Virus record (IMG/VR): IMGVR_UViG_2529293140_000004
Coordinates: 1-11,372 of that record
Source: a virus
Taxonomy: Duplodnaviria > Heunggongvirae > Uroviricota > Caudoviricetes
Strand: one strand, 5' to 3'
DNA: 11,372 nucleotides
A program made the position numbers and the translations under genes. How positions within the stretch are numbered: position 1 is the stretch's first letter; each line of letters begins with the position of its first letter. This document shows positions 3,429 through 11,372 of this stretch, in pieces. The notes below the pieces were generated by a model. That model saw nothing but the letters and a program-made list of their open reading frames with translations. It made no database searches and had not been told where the DNA came from.

Positions 3429-3589
3429 TTCTTCCCACTCCGCCACATAGCATTCAGATATTTGTTGTCATTAACAGAACCGAAACTATTTCTCTTAAGT
3501 AATTCCTCTCTCGATGGCATTGGCTTTACGCGTTGGCGAATAATCATTTCTGCCGGAAGAATGCCGGGATTGTATGCAAGTCCTCTCAT
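3425..3589 (-). CDS. Hypothetical small protein, 54 aa ([15 protein letters not shown]…)
   Basis: ORF track 3425..3742 overlaps the better-supported 98-aa ORF by 143 nt in another frame; trimmed to ATG 3589..3587, which lies after that gene's TAA stop and has SD AAGGA with 7-nt spacer. Confidence 0.45.
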
Positions 3590-3599
3590 TGTAAATTCC

Positions 3600-3896
3600 T
3601 TAGTCATTACTGATAGCGCCATAGCGTGAGCGGTAATTACGCAGGCGCGGGTCGATATATTCAGGGAAGTGGGTATATGTGGCTTTGCGGAACGGTCGGA
3701 TTGATGTCTGGTAAATTCGCTCGCGTTCTTCTTTCTCTGCAAGCCATATACAATGGCGAAATTCCTTTTCCTCTTTCGTTTCCTGCGGTAGCGACATTAT
3801 CCGGTTGTAGTTTTTCCTGAATTTATCCAGCACCTCCGATACGGAATTGCCGGAACAGCGGCGCGCGTCATCCGCACCATACAGAGGCGCTGGCAT
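3600..3896 (-). CDS. Hypothetical protein, 98 aa
   Basis: ORF track; strong SD AGGAG 6 nt before ATG 3896; immediately downstream of ssb. Confidence 0.6.
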
Positions 3897-3909
3897 GATT
3901 TTCTCCTGA

Positions 3910-4416
3910 TTAAATTGCGTGAATAGCGTGACGAGGGAAGGGGAGAGTTACTGGTGCAAAGGGTATATCGTCGTCAAAATCCATCGGAGGTTCGTTGTGT
4001 TGTGCTGGTGATGATTGCTGCTGTGGCTTCTGTGATTGCCTGCTGGCTGCTTGTTGTTTGCTGTCGCCAATGCCGCCAAGCATTTGCATCACGCCATTAA
4101 TTCCGACATGAACCTCGGTTGTGTAACGGTCTTGTCCTGACTGGTCTTTCCACTTTCTGGTTCTCAGCATTCCCTCGAAATAAATCTGATCACCTTTTTT
4201 CACATACTGCCCCACGACCTCAGCCAGTTTCCCGGATACAGCAACACGATGCCATTCAGTCAATTCCTTTTGCTCGCCAGTATTTTTATCTCGCCATTGT
4301 TCTGACGTGGCTATTGTCAGGTTAGCGAACGCTGTACCTGATGGTGAGTATCGAACTTCCGGATCTTGTCCTACCCGACCAAGGATAATCACCTTATTTA
4401 CGCCTCTGCTTGCCAT
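3910..4416 (-). CDS. ssb: Single-stranded DNA-binding protein (SSB), 168 aa, with a 15-aa extension beyond the canonical acidic tip
   Basis: ORF-track product has the SSB OB-fold N-terminus ([44 protein letters not shown]…) and the acidic motif [11 protein letters not shown], followed unusually by [15 protein letters not shown] before the stop. Confidence 0.9.
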
Positions 4417-5124
4417 TTATGCCGCCTGTTTTAGTTCGTTAACTCTGATGTTCATTACCTGAACGCATTTAGCCTGCGCCTCCTCGTTGCCAGCCATTAA
4501 TTGCCAGTCACGCTGATAACGCTCGATGAGTTTTTTCTTGTCAGTTTCTGTTGACGCATAATCGCTGAAGTCTTTCAGGATTTGCTCGCAGTCAACCGAT
4601 GGAGATTTCTGGTTGGTATTTTCTGGTGATGGTTTGTTATCTGATGCTGGGATTGCCCATCCCGGCAGCGATGGAGGGAGCCAGTAAAATCCTGTTCCAT
4701 CCTTGAGTTTTGCCCTGTGCCATCCCTGCTTTTTATCGAGAGATGTTTGTGCGAAACCTTCCTCAAGGTTATACAGATACCGACCGATTCCCCACTGAAC
4801 GGCAGCGCGCTTCATTGCACCGGAACGACCACCTTTTACGGCTTCTACCTGCGTGTTTTCAGCAGCATCCCATTTGGTTACCCATTCGGAATCAATCCTG
4901 ATTGATATGCCGCATTCAACGCCTCCGTTGTTGGGAATATCGCGGTATTCATTGCGCCATCCCGCTTTGCCGCAAACATCGTCCAGGCGTTTCATGATTG
5001 CCCTGTTCGTGACATAAGCCAGCACCATAGCCCACACCTTTCCATCGCGTGTTTTACCGCTTTGCTGTATTCGCCATTCGATATCTTCAGGGCTGAATGG
5101 CTCATCGAATTTATTCAAATCCAT
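4417..5124 (-). CDS. Rad52-family (Sak-like) single-strand annealing protein, 235 aa
   Basis: ORF-track product contains …LDDVCGKAGWRNEY… and …EAVKGGRSGAMKRAAVQWGIGRYLY…, matching the two conserved blocks of the Rad52 annealing domain (from memory of eukaryotic Rad52 and phage Sak). Directly abuts ssb (TAA then ATG). Confidence 0.7.
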   Translation of the reverse strand: MDLNKFDEPFSPEDIEWRIQQSGKTRDGKVWAMVLAYVTNRAIMKRLDDVCGKAGWRNEYRDIPNNGGVECGISIRIDSEWVTKWDAAENTQVEAVKGGRSGAMKRAAVQWGIGRYLYNLEEGFAQTSLDKKQGWHRAKLKDGTGFYWLPPSLPGWAIPASDNKPSPENTNQKSPSVDCEQILKDFSDYASTETDKKKLIERYQRDWQLMAGNEEAQAKCVQVMNIRVNELKQAA

Positions 5125-5784: not shown

Positions 5785-6639
5785 TTACTTCTTTCCGGTG
5801 AGCTTTATCCTTTGCTCTACGCTCTTCTTCGTCCTTGGTTCTTTTTCTTCTGCTATTCTGGCTTGCTCTTTTGCTTCAGCCTCGCGCCTGATTCGTTCAG
5901 CCTCCTCCTGTGCTTTTCGGCGTTCTGCTTCAATTGCCGCCTGCTTTTCTCTTTCAGCTCGTTCTGTTGCCTCTTTTGCTTCGCGCTGTGCTCGTTGCTC
6001 GGCTTCAATGCGTTCACGCTCTGCACGTTCCGCTGCTGCCTTAGCTTCTGCTTCTCGCCTTGCTGCCGCTTCAATTTCGGCTTTTGCCTTTGCTTCGGCT
6101 TCTGATCTGGCTTTCTCTTCAGCTTCTCTTTTTAAGCGTTCTTCATGCTCTCGCTTTTCCTGCTCCGCTTTGAGTCTTGCCTCTTCTCTTTGGCGGTCAA
6201 ATTCGCGATCCATCAAAATCGCTATTTCATGGTCAGACTCAATTTGCTTTGCGAGAGCTTCAGCTGCTGCCTTAGCTTCTTCTTCAGCTTTAATCCGCGC
6301 CTGTTCCTCTTCATAATCAGTAAGAGGCTGGCGTGCCTTGGCTTTCAGTTCATCAAGGCGGTCGCGCACTGTCTTGCGGTTGGCATCAATTAGCTTTGGA
6401 ATTTCCTTCAGTTCAGCAACAAGGTCTTTGCCAAGACCATCGAGATATGTTTTCGTCTGCGCAACTTTATACGCCAGAGAAGCGATCTCCTTTCTGCCCT
6501 TTGCCGTTGTGATATCAGGCACAAAGGACATAACTTCACGTTCAACCTTTTGGAGGATTTCTTCAATCTGGTCGGCAGACTGAAATACAGTCATTGCATT
6601 TGCTTTTTCAATAACAACTAAATCTGTTACTTCACTCAT
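5785..6639 (-). CDS. Coiled-coil phage protein, 284 aa, globular N-terminal third plus long E/R/A/K-rich low-complexity region
   Basis: ORF track; strong SD AAGGAGG before ATG 6639. Residues from about 100 onward are almost entirely E, R, A, K, Q. Sits upstream of cIII/kil and the recombination genes. Confidence 0.6.
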   Translation of the reverse strand: MSEVTDLVVIEKANAMTVFQSADQIEEILQKVEREVMSFVPDITTAKGRKEIASLAYKVAQTKTYLDGLGKDLVAELKEIPKLIDANRKTVRDRLDELKAKARQPLTDYEEEQARIKAEEEAKAAAEALAKQIESDHEIAILMDREFDRQREEARLKAEQEKREHEERLKREAEEKARSEAEAKAKAEIEAAARREAEAKAAAERAERERIEAEQRAQREAKEATERAEREKQAAIEAERRKAQEEAERIRREAEAKEQARIAEEKEPRTKKSVEQRIKLTGKK

Positions 6640-6674: not shown

Positions 6675-6986
6675 TCAGGCTGCTGAGGTTTCTTCTTTCA
6701 GGCTTTCGATATATTTACGTGGGTCGTCGTAACATTGGCATTCGCTGTACCAATCTACCCAGCGATCCGTAAGCCCCATCTCTGATAAATCTTCATCAGT
6801 AATGCTCTCATCCCACATCTCAAGGCCGTTAGCATTGCAGTAGTCAGGCTTGATATTGTTGTCATACTGAAAGGCATCATAATCAGCCAGTGCATCCATC
6901 AGGCGAACACCCTCTTCAACACTTGCCACTTCTACAATGAACGGCTTCATAGGTACTTGCGGGATATGCCAGACACGTAATTTCAT
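6675..6986 (-). CDS. Hypothetical protein, 103 aa (MKLRVWHIPQVPMKPFIVEV…)
   Basis: ORF track 6675..7040 trimmed: ATG 6986..6984 has a strong SD (GGAGG), and the 5' extension would run through a terminator hairpin at 6999..7027. Confidence 0.55.
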   Translation of the reverse strand: MKLRVWHIPQVPMKPFIVEVASVEEGVRLMDALADYDAFQYDNNIKPDYCNANGLEMWDESITDEDLSEMGLTDRWVDWYSECQCYDDPRKYIESLKEETSAA

Positions 6987-6998
6987 ATATCCTCCATC

Positions 6999-7027
6999 AA
7001 AAAAATTGCCCTCACACTGGAGGGCAA
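6999..7027 (-). terminator. Putative intrinsic terminator (minus strand) between the accessory block and the recombination block
   Basis: 8-bp GC-rich stem ttgccctc(7006-7013)/gagggcaa(7020-7027) with 6-nt loop; on the minus strand it is followed by T7 (plus A-run 6999-7005), then SD and ATG of the 103-aa gene. Confidence 0.5.
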
Positions 7028-7087
7028 AGAAGATTTCCAATAATCAGAACAAGTCGGCTCCTGTTTAGTTACGAGCGACATTGCTCC

Positions 7088-7656: not shown

Positions 7657-7853
7657 TCCTCAAACTTAATCTCTGCTATTTCCCGGTCACCATCGCAAAA
7701 CAGGTAAGATTCAGGGAACTGGTTTATAAATGAAATTATTCTTTCAATTTTAATTAGCGAATATTTCTGCTCTAATGGGTTATGCGGCTTAAACGAAGCA
7801 CAGTCCAGAATCGCAGAATTGTATAAGATCCATTTGTGCATTTTTACCACCAC
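7653..7853 (-). CDS. Hypothetical small protein, 62-66 aa (weak call)
   Basis: ORF track; start is GTG at 7853 or ATG at 7841 (SD GGTGG); either overlaps the 3' end of the PP-loop enzyme gene by 50 nt or more, so the call is uncertain. Confidence 0.3.
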   Translation of the reverse strand: MVVKMHKWILYNSAILDCASFKPHNPLEQKYSLIKIERIISFINQFPESYLFCDGDREIAEIKFEE

Positions 7854-8646
7854 TAGGTGTTAGTGGTGCCTCAGATAGTGGAACACCATATTTAGTAAGC
7901 CACAAATGAGGCCACTTCATTTGTATCTCTTTTTCATGCTGACATGCTCTTTCAAAATCAGATGGGACGTTATTTTTCATATAAAGCCACAGATCATCAT
8001 CTCTGTTAGGGCACATCCAGCAAAGCGAGGCAGGTGGTGTAGGAAGACCATAATCCTCGACACATTGAATTGCCATCTGTTTAGTCATTAGCATTTCAAT
8101 AAGTGGATAGCGCCTCTGCCACTTGCCAGTTGGGTATTTCGCTCTTCGTTTAGCCTCTTCAATGCTTATCCCCATCCAACTATCCACTCCTCTTGCTGTA
8201 AGATACTTCTCTCCATATCTTTCATTTAAAAATCTCTGAATAACTTCAGTTTTCCACTTTATAGAACAAAATGCTGGTTGCTTTCCAGCGCACATTCCTT
8301 TTGAATCCCTTCCCTCGTATTCTGTGAAATATCCAGGTAGAGGAACGTCTGGATCAGGCCCATCAATGTCGTAGGTAGCAAATCTACTTTTAGGAACAAT
8401 CAGGTAATCAACACCCATATCTTCACAAATAGGAGCTATATATTTTTTCTGATATTCAAATACATTACTTGCCTCACGTTCTGTATCTGACATAACGATA
8501 ATGTCAGGCTTTGGAAGAACGCCAGCATGTACTAAGCAGATTATTGCGTTACTTTGAGTACCACCACCGGAAGAAATAACATTTAGTCTTTCTGGATTAT
8601 GCTTGAATTCTCTTCTTGGTATGAATTTACTTGTAAATCCTGGCAT
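7789..8646 (-). CDS. PP-loop ATP pyrophosphatase superfamily protein (PAPS reductase/DndC-like), 285 aa
   Basis: ORF-track product carries an N-terminal PP-loop (SSGGGTQS) and C-terminal cysteine pairs (CWMCP and CDSGLC); strong SD AAGGAG 5 nt before ATG 8646. AT-rich by eye compared with neighbouring genes. Confidence 0.75.
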   Translation of the reverse strand: MPGFTSKFIPRREFKHNPERLNVISSGGGTQSNAIICLVHAGVLPKPDIIVMSDTEREASNVFEYQKKYIAPICEDMGVDYLIVPKSRFATYDIDGPDPDVPLPGYFTEYEGRDSKGMCAGKQPAFCSIKWKTEVIQRFLNERYGEKYLTARGVDSWMGISIEEAKRRAKYPTGKWQRRYPLIEMLMTKQMAIQCVEDYGLPTPPASLCWMCPNRDDDLWLYMKNNVPSDFERACQHEKEIQMKWPHLWLTKYGVPLSEAPLTPSGGKNAQMDLIQFCDSGLCFV

Positions 8647-8838: not shown

Positions 8839-9222
8839 TCACCTTGCTGTCAGTTGTTTTGATTTCCTGTAGCCTGCCGCGTAAAGAGCTACATTTGGAA
8901 GACATACACCAGTTTCTGGTTGCCTATGCCCAAACTCATTCGCGTACACAATGGCCGCTCTCTCCAGATTGCGTCTGTATTCTTTCTGTTGCCAGATCAC
9001 GTCCTGTGCCATGAACTTAATTGGCTTAGCGTCTTCTATGCGCTCAGGCGTTTCGTGAGTACCTTTAGCCTGAATCTGCGCTCTGCTTAGAGTAGGGCGG
9101 TGTAATACTTCTGAACTTATTGCTTCTTCGCGGGCCAGTACGCCGTTAGCTAATGCCTTTGCCTTTAAACGCTCACGACGACGAGAACGTGAATTGCCTT
9201 TGAACTGAGTTCTGCGTGTCAT
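8839..9222 (-). CDS. N: N-like transcription antitermination protein, 127 aa
   Basis: First gene downstream of pL/nutL; strong SD AGGAGGT before ATG 9222; N-terminal arginine-rich motif (KGNSRSRRRERLKAKALA) like the ARM of lambdoid N proteins; the upstream boxB is P22-type. Confidence 0.6.
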   Translation of the reverse strand: MTRRTQFKGNSRSRRRERLKAKALANGVLAREEAISSEVLHRPTLSRAQIQAKGTHETPERIEDAKPIKFMAQDVIWQQKEYRRNLERAAIVYANEFGHRQPETGVCLPNVALYAAGYRKSKQLTAR

Positions 9223-9680: not shown

Positions 9681-9720
9681 AGGCAAAGAAAACCCGGCGC
9701 GGTGGCCGGGTTTATTTATT
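9681..9720. terminator. tIMM-like terminator (hairpin with U-rich flanks on both strands)
   Basis: Stem cccggc(9693-9698)/gccggg(9705-9710), 6-nt loop; T-rich runs on both sides (plus tttatttatt 9711-9720; minus TTTTCTTTG from plus 9681-9692). Lies just after the stop of the 216-aa gene, and resembles the lambda terminator that follows rexB. Confidence 0.6.
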
Positions 9721-10366
9721 GCTTAGGAGCTTGTTGTGATGACGATTGGTTAGTTGGAGCGCTCGTTAATGGTTGCTGTGTCGGTACCTGTATTATAATT
9801 GGAGCCGGGCTGGTTACTGATGGTGACTTGTCATTGCCGGAGATAATCCAACTTGAGGCTAACATCACGCCAGACAGAATCACAGTAACTAAAGTCAAGC
9901 CAACGGCCATCGCCCACTGAGTCGTTGTAAGTCCCGTTTTCAAACCGCCGATTTCACCTTTAATTTCAGCAATACCTCTCTCAATAGAAGAAAATTGCTG
10001 AGTATAATAGGTTTTAAAGTCAGCTGATTCGCGACGCATTTCCGCAGCAATAGACTCTACCTCTGATTTGTTTTGTGAAAGCTTTGCGTCAAGTTCTTCT
10101 CTGGACATTCCGCTCACGCTTACCTCCAGGGTATCACTCTTCATCGCTACATCTTCCTTACTTGGGCGCAAACCCGTTTCGTCCATGGCGTATGAAACTC
10201 TATTTGATACCTTAGCATCAATACCAATACTTTGGTACTGAGATGGATCCCCATAAGGAGAAACGGTTGTCGCTGCTAGGGTTGCACTAACTATAATACT
10301 TGGAAGAACTGATGATGTTGTTCCTGAGGTAGGTTGAACTGAAGAAACTGGCTTCAGTCTTTCCAT
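9716..10366 (-). CDS. Single-pass membrane protein, 216 aa: S/T-rich N-terminus, central coiled-coil, one TM helix, S/T/P/Q-rich C-terminal tail
   Basis: ORF track. Hydrophobic segment WAMAVGLTLVTVILSGVMLASSWII; charged helical region SREELDAKLSQNKSEVESIAAEMRRESADFK. Open frame of 74 codons upstream of an alternative start (M75, with SD AAGGAAG) argues that the long form is coding. Occupies the lambda rexB position. Confidence 0.6.
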   Translation of the reverse strand: MERLKPVSSVQPTSGTTSSVLPSIIVSATLAATTVSPYGDPSQYQSIGIDAKVSNRVSYAMDETGLRPSKEDVAMKSDTLEVSVSGMSREELDAKLSQNKSEVESIAAEMRRESADFKTYYTQQFSSIERGIAEIKGEIGGLKTGLTTTQWAMAVGLTLVTVILSGVMLASSWIISGNDKSPSVTSPAPIIIQVPTQQPLTSAPTNQSSSQQAPKQ

Positions 10367-10761
10367 AGCCCATTATCCCTGAGAGCTACCTGTAATGATT
10401 TTACTAATGCAACAGCTTGATCCGGGCTCATTGAGACTGACATGTTAGGGGTCAACTCAACTTTTACTTGGAAGCTATTATTTCCTTGCTCATCAGACTG
10501 CATGTGATGCTCAAATTCATGGCGGTAAAAAGTAATGATTGTTTCAGCACGATCAGGCGTAATAAGAACTGATGTGGCGGTCATGTGCTGAGGTATGATT
10601 TTAATAGTGTTATCTGACATAAGTATCCTTTTTGTTTCCTTAGTATTTTTTTGCATTGACATCAGAAATAGCGAATCCACAAGAGTATGAGTAAAGCTAA
10701 TCAGTTTAGTGATACGGTGACTATTAAAGTGGTAAACCACATCAAAGCTCGCAGAGTGCAT
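10354..10761 (-). CDS. Hypothetical soluble protein, 135 aa (alternative 88-aa form from ATG 10620)
   Basis: ORF track; overlaps the downstream 216-aa gene by 13 nt. ATG 10761 has no SD, whereas ATG 10620 (MSDNTIKIIPQ…) has a strong AAGGA SD, so the start is uncertain. Confidence 0.5.
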   Translation of the reverse strand: MHSASFDVVYHFNSHRITKLISFTHTLVDSLFLMSMQKNTKETKRILMSDNTIKIIPQHMTATSVLITPDRAETIITFYRHEFEHHMQSDEQGNNSFQVKVELTPNMSVSMSPDQAVALVKSLQVALRDNGLWKD

Positions 10762-10812
10762 ACCAGGCTGTCACACATGACAAAGTAACGAGGATGCCTG
10801 ATCTCATAGCGC

Positions 10813-10968
10813 TCAAAGAGACATGCCGATAATGGCATTAACCACGCATGACGCCATAAACACGCCGCCAACGATGAAGCTGGCTTGGTTCTTCCTGGTA
10901 GCGCCAAGAGTCAACAGAACCACTGAAAGGGCAAAAAAAGGTATCGCGATTATGCTGAACGTGTTCAT
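10813..10968 (-). CDS. Small two-TM membrane protein, 51 aa (MNTFSIIAIPFFALSVVLLTLGATRKNQASFIVGGVFMASCVVNAIIGMSL)
   Basis: Hand-translated codon by codon, below the track threshold; SD GAGGT 4 nt before ATG 10968; two hydrophobic helices separated by TRKNQ; first gene downstream of cI, same orientation. Confidence 0.4.
   Translation of the reverse strand: MNTFSIIAIPFFALSVVLLTLGATRKNQASFIVGGVFMASCVVNAIIGMSL

Positions 10969-11045: not shown

Positions 11046-11372
<327 letters not shown>

Follow-up and report, generated by a model that had tools for sequence, protein, structure and literature searches.

An internal acidic tip in the SSB of a lambdoid recombination module and the wider occurrence of extended phage SSBs

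The SSB encoded in the window (the whole stretch of 11,372 nucleotides analysed here) does not end at its acidic tip. The reading frame continues for 15 residues past DDDIPF to a TAA, as an earlier note on this DNA had described, and the ORF translation confirms both that description and its coordinates. Comparison with homologous sequences shows that this cap is the usual state of the SSB clade in Enterobacterales. It also shows that the cap is one instance of a wider pattern among SSBs of Proteobacteria phages, in which DDDIPF is followed, usually by way of Ala-Pro, by a short lineage-specific tail. The best explanation that we can offer from the comparative data, and one to which we give slightly less than even confidence, is that the cap blocks the docking of host partners and insulates phage recombination intermediates, perhaps adding a private docking site.

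The ssb gene and its module

In our analysis the window protein has the parts of a bacterial-type SSB. Pfam PF00436 matches residues 6-104 (E 1.6e-36), E. coli-type SSB structures in the PDB are matched at E 1e-58 to 1e-59 (phmmer), and AF2 predicts a confident beta-barrel for the OB domain, with a pLDDT of ~82-87 at residues 11-80 and ~70 near residue 110. The OB fold is followed by a disordered linker, which is hypervariable among relatives to the extent that no consensus can be defined there, and by the D-D-D-I-P-F tip. In the encoded protein this tip is not the extreme C-terminus and has no free Phe alpha-carboxylate. The Phe153 codon TTT (3958-3960, minus strand) runs uninterrupted into those for Ala and Pro (TTT GCA CCA), and the window thus carries an allele free of the HNH cassette described below. 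The cap, which ends non-polar (...HAIHAI) before the TAA stop at 3910-3912 (minus strand), has low confidence in the AF2 model of the SSB monomer (pLDDT ~55), with a four-residue strand at 164-167. The earlier note had stated that SSBs normally end at the tip. This is correct for most SSBs and incorrect as a statement about all of them: among the best 150 representatives in a profile search of 1.84 billion 50%-identity representatives, 71 have the canonical tip and 12 have short extensions, while the rest resemble fragments or frameshifts, and about one in seven of the tip-bearing representatives is therefore extended. A cause of the tail at the nucleic acid level was ruled out, since no promoter-like or terminator-like sites were seen in 3500-4600 and the RNA fold of 3885-3985 is weaker than that of shuffled sequences (z = +1.5).

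The gene lies within a minus-strand lambdoid early-left operon (Table 1). Its ATG abuts the TAA of the annealing-protein gene upstream, and the ribosome-binding site of the adjoining Abc2 gene downstream begins right past the ssb stop. N, the kil/cIII-sized ORFs and cI are located upstream of these three genes. In a 2025 survey of 325 lambdoid phages, the trio of annealing protein, SSB and Abc2 makes up the HK75-type Rec module, which is nuclease-free and consists of an anti-RecBCD protein, an SSB-1 and a strand-annealing protein (PMC12315714). In the window the three genes are contiguous and tightly packed with no nuclease gene between them, and the module has the same gene order as that of HK75 and 98% nucleotide identity to it. 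PADLOC matched neither ssb nor the neighbouring unknown ORFs to a defence system, with the exception of a weak SspD-like match on 7789-8646. Domain content and gene context together show the window protein to be a phage SSB that is intact and looks expressed, and that corresponds to 'SSB-1' in the HK75-type recombination modules of lambdoid phages. The SSB-1 proteins are stated to be experimentally unstudied (PMC12315714).

Table 1. Genes of the early-left operon and parts of ssb in the window, from right to left
Feature	Position	Strand	Basis
CI-type repressor, C-terminal half	11046-11372	-	Peptidase_S24
Three unknown ORFs	between CI-type repressor and N	-	
N	8839-9222	-	
PAPS-reductase/SspD-like gene, then gp17 superinfection-exclusion gene, then kil/cIII-sized ORFs	N to annealing protein	-	
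Rad52/22-type single-strand annealing protein	4417-5124	-	Pfam PF04098, E 7e-26; phrog_1097
Annealing-protein C-terminal three-helix-bundle domain (predicted)	4420-4590	-	hhalign, AF2
Complete ssb gene (168 codons + TAA)	3910-4416	-	Pfam PF00436; phrog_44 (SSB)
OB-fold ssDNA-binding domain, residues 1-112	4081-4416	-	PF00436, AF2, alignment to E. coli-type SSB structures
Disordered Gln/Pro/Ser-rich linker, residues 113-142	3991-4080	-	AF2 pLDDT 29-45
Acidic tip, residues 143-153, internal rather than C-terminal	3958-3990	-	translation, alignment of relatives
Phe153/Ala154 codon junction, insertion point of the HNH cassette in relatives	3957-3958	-	nucleotide alignment
15-residue C-terminal cap, residues 154-168	3913-3957	-	translation, conservation in relatives
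Abc2 anti-RecBCD	3600-3896	-	Pfam PF11043, E 1.9e-60
Ead/Ea22, DUF551 and ea8.5 genes, then Xis-like gene	left of Abc2	-	

Distribution of the cap and constraint on its sequence

Phages mEp235, mEpX2 and HK75 share 98% DNA identity with the locus, which is matched by 228 phage records. The ssb region is matched in 413 of 5426 complete E. coli genomes, with 115 records at 99% identity or more, and the NCBI pipeline annotates the gene plainly as ssb. Because the 168-aa SSB is identical in the independently sequenced phages HK75 and mEp235, and because the same tail is found on the diverged SSB bodies of epsilon34 and ECP1, an artefact of sequencing or assembly is excluded. Among the best 90%-identity clusters from a collection of 5.8 billion proteins, 112 out of 120 have the tail, with substitutions in it that are conservative; cluster sizes go up to 1030 members, and one of the 112 (P0001) has a shorter, 12-residue tail ending ...PRHAI. 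The tailed clusters come from at least eight enterobacterial genera, including E. coli, Salmonella, Klebsiella, Citrobacter, Enterobacter, Kluyvera, Pluralibacter and Phytobacter. The earlier note had left a choice between a stop codon lost by mutation and a genuine variant class, and had named an assembly error as a possible refutation. The tailed clusters, the constraint described below and the analogous extensions in phage SSBs of other Proteobacteria favour the variant class, and the independent phages and the derived condition of canonical-ended relatives speak against the other origins.

Both tip and tail are conserved among 49 aligned relatives that were collected by similarity and are 68-90% identical to the window SSB. 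In the tip, F147, P152 and F153 are invariant and P143, P144, M145, D148, D149, D150 and I151 are conserved in at least 90%; in the tail, P155 and L158 are invariant and P159, F160, R162, H163 and I168 reach at least 90%. The tail pattern, P-x-x-L-x-[FY]-P-R-H-x-I-[HY]-x-[IL], is retained in the diverged tails APVGLPYPRHCIYLI, APIGLQFSRHSIHAI and SPVGLQYGKHRVYAL. Among 60 unique genes the conserved tail residues are each encoded by three to five synonymous codons (CTC, CTT, CTG, TTA and CTA for Leu, all four for Pro, and CGT, CGC, CGG, CGA and AGA for Arg), and 36 distinct tail DNAs encode 22 distinct peptides. The alignment to phage SSB homologues proposed in the earlier note thus finds the extension conserved, with its key positions kept despite synonymous codon changes. 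Over all pairs, pN/pS is 0.37 for tail residues 156-168, 0.48 for the OB domain and 0.65 for the linker, the highest value in ssb. The loci used for the codon and pN/pS comparisons were mostly collected by a DNA pattern forcing DDDIPF[AS]P, and those eight residues are invariant by construction, so that the evidence for a conserved tip and Ala-Pro comes from the sets gathered by similarity, namely the 120 clusters and the alignment of 49 relatives. Codon variation and pN/pS indicate that protein-level constraint acts on the tail. Constraint does not account for all of its uniformity: in moderately diverged pairs synonymous divergence (pS) is 0.05 in the tail versus 0.26 in the OB domain, so that part of the uniformity reflects recent recombinational spread of the segment downstream from the tip rather than selection. 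The window, ECP1 and Sf6 have near-identical tails and downstream DNA on different ssb bodies.

Extensions of the tip are also found well outside the Enterobacterales. A scan for DDDIPF[AS]P in one genome per species gave at least 120 matches, as did the same scan of a viral-contig collection. The Enterobacterales tail has 15-16 residues (AP-x-[GT]-L-x-[FY]-P-R-H-x-I-x-x-I), and the tail of Alteromonadales, Vibrionales and their relatives is APIGLQYPALLSVM-like (APIGLQYP...). Other classes are APLGLQRRFSTYSM in Chromobacterium, APLHHLAGA-like tails and APISRLLLNII in Pseudomonas, APEWR or APEVR in Rhizobiales, APHFDGQF in Psychrobacter and APLLARCEYVI in Paenalcaligenes. When Ala-Pro was not forced (FDDDIPF followed by a codon not starting with T) at least 120 matches were again obtained; among the matches listed about two thirds have AP, and the non-AP tails include ADPYRGARSLLI, MRHGHRGADVCWRAM, GTSVA and a single N. 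Across lineages the tails therefore range from one to ~24 residues of unrelated sequence, all of them after DDDIPF.

The genes upstream, among the matches listed, encode Rad52-like proteins in 41 cases, every one with the enterobacterial tail, the YqaJ exonuclease in 32, and AAA_24/Sak4-like ATPases in three clusters of 13, 12 and 6, the first barely above the Pfam threshold. A RecT gene lies downstream of the ssb of the APISRLLLNII class. The enterobacterial tail adjoins three unrelated gene families (Rad52-like, AAA_24 and HNH), which indicates that the tail class tracks the host taxon and not the recombinase family. A tail bound to a single annealing-protein family is ruled out by these neighbours. 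With SSBs of conjugative plasmids the match to the query seems to be confined to the tip part; matches extending into the tail were seen in 28 records, several of them non-conjugative and ~40-95 kb in size. In the open-access literature we found no description of the cap under the junction sequence, tip extensions or notes on the Sf6 and ES18 genes, and a remark in a subscription journal is possible. Sequences of capped SSBs have long been present in the databases.

Canonical-ended relatives

Some close relatives of the window SSB end at the tip. The SSB of Sf6 (gp27) ends ...DDSDIPF and stops there, and the next gene, gp26, which encodes an HNH endonuclease of 159 aa, ends in the SSB tail. 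Similarly, in Salmonella prophages the HNH ORF ends with a complete SSB tail, which differs from that of the window by four synonymous and no non-synonymous changes. In a nucleotide alignment the HNH cassette (TAG GAG ... GAC GAG), which is ~0.5 kb long, sits exactly between the Phe and Ala/Pro codons, and its ORF ends ...PDE[E/A] followed by 14 tail residues. The profile of the gp26 family (phrog_2340, endonuclease) stops at residue 143, and alignments with gp26 homologues from Vibrio, Pseudomonas and Staphylococcus phages, including I-KsaII, end at residue 134-151 of 159. As the endonuclease profile and homologues stop short of the tail, the tail is part of ssb and not of the endonuclease. 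The same end points rule out the possibility that the tail is native to the HNH family and that the extension was born by deletion of an HNH gene.

The HNH-bearing lineages have two different ssb bodies with a common altered flank, MNFDDSDIPF, which contains an extra Ser codon. We infer that this shared flank is the expected product of co-conversion during homing combined with self-immunity of the target site. The predicted cut on the HNH-free allele would fall near the point where GATATACCCTTT meets GCACCAGTAACTC, and the DDSDIPF allele would be left uncut. The only earlier trace of the cap that we found is the GenBank note to Sf6 gene 26, which refers to '14 contiguous amino acids identical to ... 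SSB'. In the survey of lambdoid phages the HNH of ES18-type modules is treated as the probable nuclease of the recombination module, and its insertion into ssb is not described there (PMC12315714). The 'HNH nuclease' of ES18/Sf6-type recombination modules can be reinterpreted as a cassette within ssb.

The HNH cassette does not explain every canonical end. The SSBs of clusters P0008 and P0011 are 88-91% identical to that of the window, and their genes close with TTC TGA, beyond which lie unrelated DNA, a hairpin and another gene, with HNH absent. Among close relatives a canonical end is thus the derived state, arising by HNH insertion or by replacement of the 3' end, and the cap has been lost more than once. 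Modules that are nearly identical in other respects may have either a capped or an uncapped allele (Sf6, the Salmonella prophages, P0008 and P0011), and the cap is therefore dispensable for phage viability.

Possible functions of the cap and comparison with known systems

The free C-terminal Phe of SSB is regarded as a handle common to the whole network of bacterial genome maintenance, and it is an antibiotic target. From recBC sbcB genetics, ExoI, which SSB recruits and stimulates, would be the main threat to 3' single strands once RecBCD has been neutralised. Partner proteins recognise the final residues of SSB by accommodating the side chain of Phe in a hydrophobic pocket; in DnaG the terminal Phe carboxylate is salt-bridged by a conserved Arg, and similar pockets are present in ExoI, RecO, chi and PriA (PMC5872125). 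If host partners generally grip the tip in this way, with the last Phe buried and a salt bridge to its free alpha-carboxylate, the Phe-Ala-Pro peptide bond would abolish that carboxylate and add bulk, making the capped tip a poor ligand for the host interactome. A capped SSB could then coat phage ssDNA while being inefficient at recruiting host SSB-dependent enzymes, of which ExoI may be the clearest case. With RecBCD disabled by Abc2, the capped SSB would shield from ExoI the 3' tails that the annealing protein needs. The HNH insertion seen in relatives might in turn serve as a naturally occurring switch back to a free tip. The functional guess of the earlier note, a masked tip with altered partner binding that is possibly dominant-negative, is therefore plausible when set against these known interactions.

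All tail classes have just one thing in common, namely that Phe is followed by something, if only a single residue, and this fits masking as their shared function. The extended SSBs are also set in phage recombination modules, with Rad52-like, AAA_24/Sak4-like, RecT, YqaJ or Abc2 proteins, and in phage HK620 there is a precedent for the C-terminus of a cognate phage SSB driving the neighbouring annealase, Sak4 (PMC5928155). If insulation were the sole benefit, however, the tip would be free to decay, whereas few parts of the protein are better conserved. In addition, the enterobacterial tail is conserved far beyond the needs of capping, which points to a specific partner or structure. Conservation of both tip and tail sequence thus argues for more than masking alone. 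The tip may be conserved for roles independent of the carboxylate, such as back-binding to the OB fold and cooperativity. Alternatively, tip and tail could form one extended epitope, 'IPF-AP-x-x-L-x-F', for a private partner. More speculatively, and we regard this as possible rather than probable, capped-tip SSBs may constitute a widespread undescribed phage class in which Ala-Pro plus a lineage-specific tail blocks the universal docking peptide for host enzymes, ExoI above all, the SSB is reserved for phage recombination, and a mobile HNH endonuclease aimed precisely at the junction of tip and cap toggles phages between capped and uncapped states.

The main rival to masking, or complement of it, which we again regard as possible rather than probable, is that tail and tip form a private docking site for a phage recombination protein or a host factor, with recruitment and not masking as the main role. 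The tail is conserved in its specific sequence and is not merely present, and the synonymous-only differences of the Salmonella HNH-borne tail point the same way. The most obvious candidate for a partner is the predicted three-helix-bundle C-terminal domain of the adjacent annealing protein (AF2 pLDDT >90). A C-terminal domain of ~60 aa is homologous between the Rad52-like and AAA_24/Sak4-like proteins beside extended SSBs (hhalign 97%, E 6e-11), and HK620 Sak4 requires the six C-terminal residues of its cognate SSB (PMC5928155). On the other hand, the tail class follows the host taxon and not the recombinase family, the shared domain is found alongside two tail classes, the enterobacterial one and that of Pseudomonas, and Sf6-type phages manage without a tailed SSB. 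Fold and sequence searches with this domain of the annealing protein also returned only generic helical bundles and coiled-coil noise, with no specific link to the SSB-binding C-terminal domain of Red-beta, and a protein search with the domain fragment alone returned only fragments.

Roles as a degradation tag or in clamp binding are weaker rivals than docking. In the first, which we consider improbable, the tail would be a C-terminal degradation signal, its non-polar end replacing the stabilising acidic one and exposing a potentially toxic SSB to rapid turnover by ClpXP, FtsH or Lon. C-terminal degradation signals include ssrA and the MuA-type ClpX motifs, and non-polar C-termini were reportedly identified as determinants of degradation in E. 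coli by Parsell, Silber and Sauer in 1990. Most tail classes do end in small or hydrophobic residues (...HAI, ...YAL, ...SVM, ...LAGA, ...NII, ...LLI and ...RAM), and the FtsH inhibitor CIII is encoded in the same operon. A non-polar end is missing, however, from APEWR, APEVR and the tails of a single N, R or D, and conservation covers all 15 residues, including internal Pro, Leu, Phe, Arg and His, and not just the last three to five. In the second, which we think still more doubtful, the enterobacterial and Vibrio-type tails would be a degenerate beta-sliding-clamp motif that tethers the host clamp to SSB-coated DNA. Clamp motifs for comparison are QLSLPL in Hda and QLVLGL in Pol IV. The core P-[VI]-[TG]-L-[PQ]-[FY] fits positions 2, 4 and 6 of the clamp-binding consensus Q-phi-x-[L/M]-x-[F/L], and acidic residues stand before it, as they do in many clamp ligands (PMC11139829). 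In the window, though, P-V-T-L-P-F has Pro in place of Gln, the main contributor to affinity; the last position of the core is often Tyr, His or Cys, and the Pseudomonas, Rhizobiales, Psychrobacter and other tail classes fail the motif entirely.

That the tail is a functionless relic of read-through, from a recent stop-codon loss or a sequencing error, has a negligible chance of being right: canonical-ended close relatives do exist (P0008-P0013) and the low synonymous divergence of tail DNA among moderately diverged genes is what recent spread predicts, but the relatives are accounted for by insertion or replacement, and the idea is already contradicted by the identical protein in independent phage genomes, by the presence of the tail in nearly all of the best clusters, large ones included, by the many tail DNAs that leave key residues unchanged, and by diverged tails (SPVGLQYGKHRVYAL and APVGLPYPRHCIYLI) that still fit the pattern.

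If masking by the cap is the correct reading, a large conserved class of SSBs that keeps the handle and caps it would show that phage recombination takes place on SSB-coated DNA shielded from host nucleases and helicases. Capped SSBs would also provide natural orthogonal pairs of SSB and annealing protein for recombineering. The paired alleles (capped, uncapped by HNH interruption and uncapped by 3' replacement) could serve as natural controls for the in vivo role of the free carboxylate.

The closest well-studied protein is the chromosomal SSB of E. coli (PF00436; PDB 1EQQ/4MZ9), to which the window SSB aligns in the OB fold over residues 1-115 and with which it shares a disordered Gln/Pro-rich linker and an identical tip. 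The E. coli protein stops at Phe, with the free carboxylate in the partner epitope (PMC5872125), whereas that of the window has 15 more residues. All SSBs in the PDB align only to residue 153 (phmmer), and no tail like that of the window was found in any solved SSB. As in the window, the SSB of HK620 (HkaK) is encoded beside an annealase, Sak4, in the same operon position, and its C-terminus is needed for loading and stimulating Sak4 (PMC5928155). The HK620 protein differs in that it is not homologous to bacterial SSB and has a free, uncapped, tip-like end, NDYPPF. Lambda Red-beta resembles the window annealing protein in having a small helical C-terminal domain, which in Red-beta binds the C-terminus of host SSB according to work by Zakharova et al. 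2024, as cited in PMC12315714. Lambda, however, has no SSB of its own and relies on the free tip of the host's, while the window module encodes a capped SSB.

The closest genetic counterparts are Sf6 gp27/gp26 and the equivalent alleles of Salmonella and E. coli prophages, which have the recombination module, the SSB clade and the tail-coding DNA in common with the window; the Sf6-type alleles are split by the HNH cassette and that of the window is uninterrupted. The free-standing homing endonuclease mobE reportedly splits the nrdA gene of phage Aeh1. The HNH gene in relatives of the window is like such gene-splitting homing endonucleases in being inserted in conserved coding sequence with a co-converted and altered flank. 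This likeness concerns the relatives and not the window itself, and both homing and the cleavage site are putative.

Gene insertions and a mosaic boundary at the end of ssb

The DNA encoding the 15-residue tail of the window SSB (3913-3957), together with the DNA downstream from it, is nearly identical across phages in which the ssb bodies are strongly diverged (the window, Sf6, L004 and epsilon34), synonymous divergence being 0.05 in the tail versus 0.26 in the OB domain. The tip-coding sequence is therefore a mosaic recombination boundary. Close relatives of the window SSB also have other ends. Two SSBs that are 88-91% identical to it (L297 and L300) end canonically, with ...DIPF followed by TGA, beyond which there are unrelated DNA, a hairpin rich in GC and an ORF for 112 aa with no known function. 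The Salmonella cluster P0001 (588 members) is a 165-aa variant whose end (12 protein letters not shown) reads as though the tail had lost one of its two terminal HAI repeats.

Further relatives have an HNH endonuclease cassette (159 aa) at the exact junction of the tip Phe codon and the tail codons, and as a result of this placement the endonuclease ORF terminates in the SSB tail. The flank MNFDDSDIPF, altered by an extra Ser codon, is common to two different ssb backgrounds with the cassette, and this similarity suggests a mobile cassette with co-conversion of its flank. Several gene callers, including PGAP, leave the cassette ORF without annotation. In some relatives a DnaQ-like exonuclease gene has been inserted right behind the tail, in the interval between the ssb stop codon and abc2. 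The SSBs of three viral contigs (L265, L282 and L293) have a single extra residue after the tip, ending DDDIPFN, and the gene behind them belongs to a different HNH endonuclease family. Phage ssb genes recurrently have an endonuclease gene at their 3' end.

Features in the window and in related loci
Feature	Location	Strand	Remarks
C-terminal domain of Rad52-like annealing protein	window 4420-4590	-	about 60 aa
Low-complexity protein	window 5785-6639	-	284 aa, Glu/Ala/Lys/Arg-rich
gp17-type superinfection-exclusion gene	window 6675-7040	-	PF17420
PAPS-reductase-like protein	window 7789-8646	-	285 aa; phrog_424; weak PADLOC SspD match, E 3e-7
Three ORFs of unknown function	window 9716-10968	-	between cI and N
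Canonical-ended SSB relatives	L297:1501-2040; L300:1501-2040
HNH endonuclease cassette	L003:1809-2288 (Sf6 gp26); L006:4460-4955; L007:3709-4210; L008:2347-2826; also L295, L296 (E. coli)
DnaQ-like 3'-5' exonuclease gene (Rv2179c-like)	L002:1812-2360 (mEp235); L005:1808-2356 (epsilon34); L006:4956-5504

C-terminal domain of the annealing protein

The window annealing protein's C-terminal domain, a predicted three-helix bundle, is homologous (hhalign 97%) to one in AAA_24/Sak4-like ATPases, the genes of which adjoin extended SSBs in Enterobacterales and Pseudomonas (upstream in L012, L041, L098, L178 and others). It looks like a candidate shuffled partner-interaction module carried on two unrelated recombinase cores.

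Other genes of the early-left operon

The low-complexity gene adjoins the superinfection-exclusion gene, and at the same position in L296 its homologue is, according to PGAP, a frameshifted TolA-like pseudogene. The PAPS-reductase-like gene, with N on one side and the recombination module on the other, may have a DNA-modification or counter-defence function. The three ORFs between cI and N encode 51 aa (probably a membrane protein), 135 aa (phrog_26809) and 216 aa (phrog_5820; its C-terminal segment is hydrophobic). None of them matched Pfam; in PADLOC the 51-aa and 216-aa ORFs had no match and the 135-aa ORF only a marginal one to PDC-S52 (E about 0.01). They occupy the position that rexAB has in lambda.
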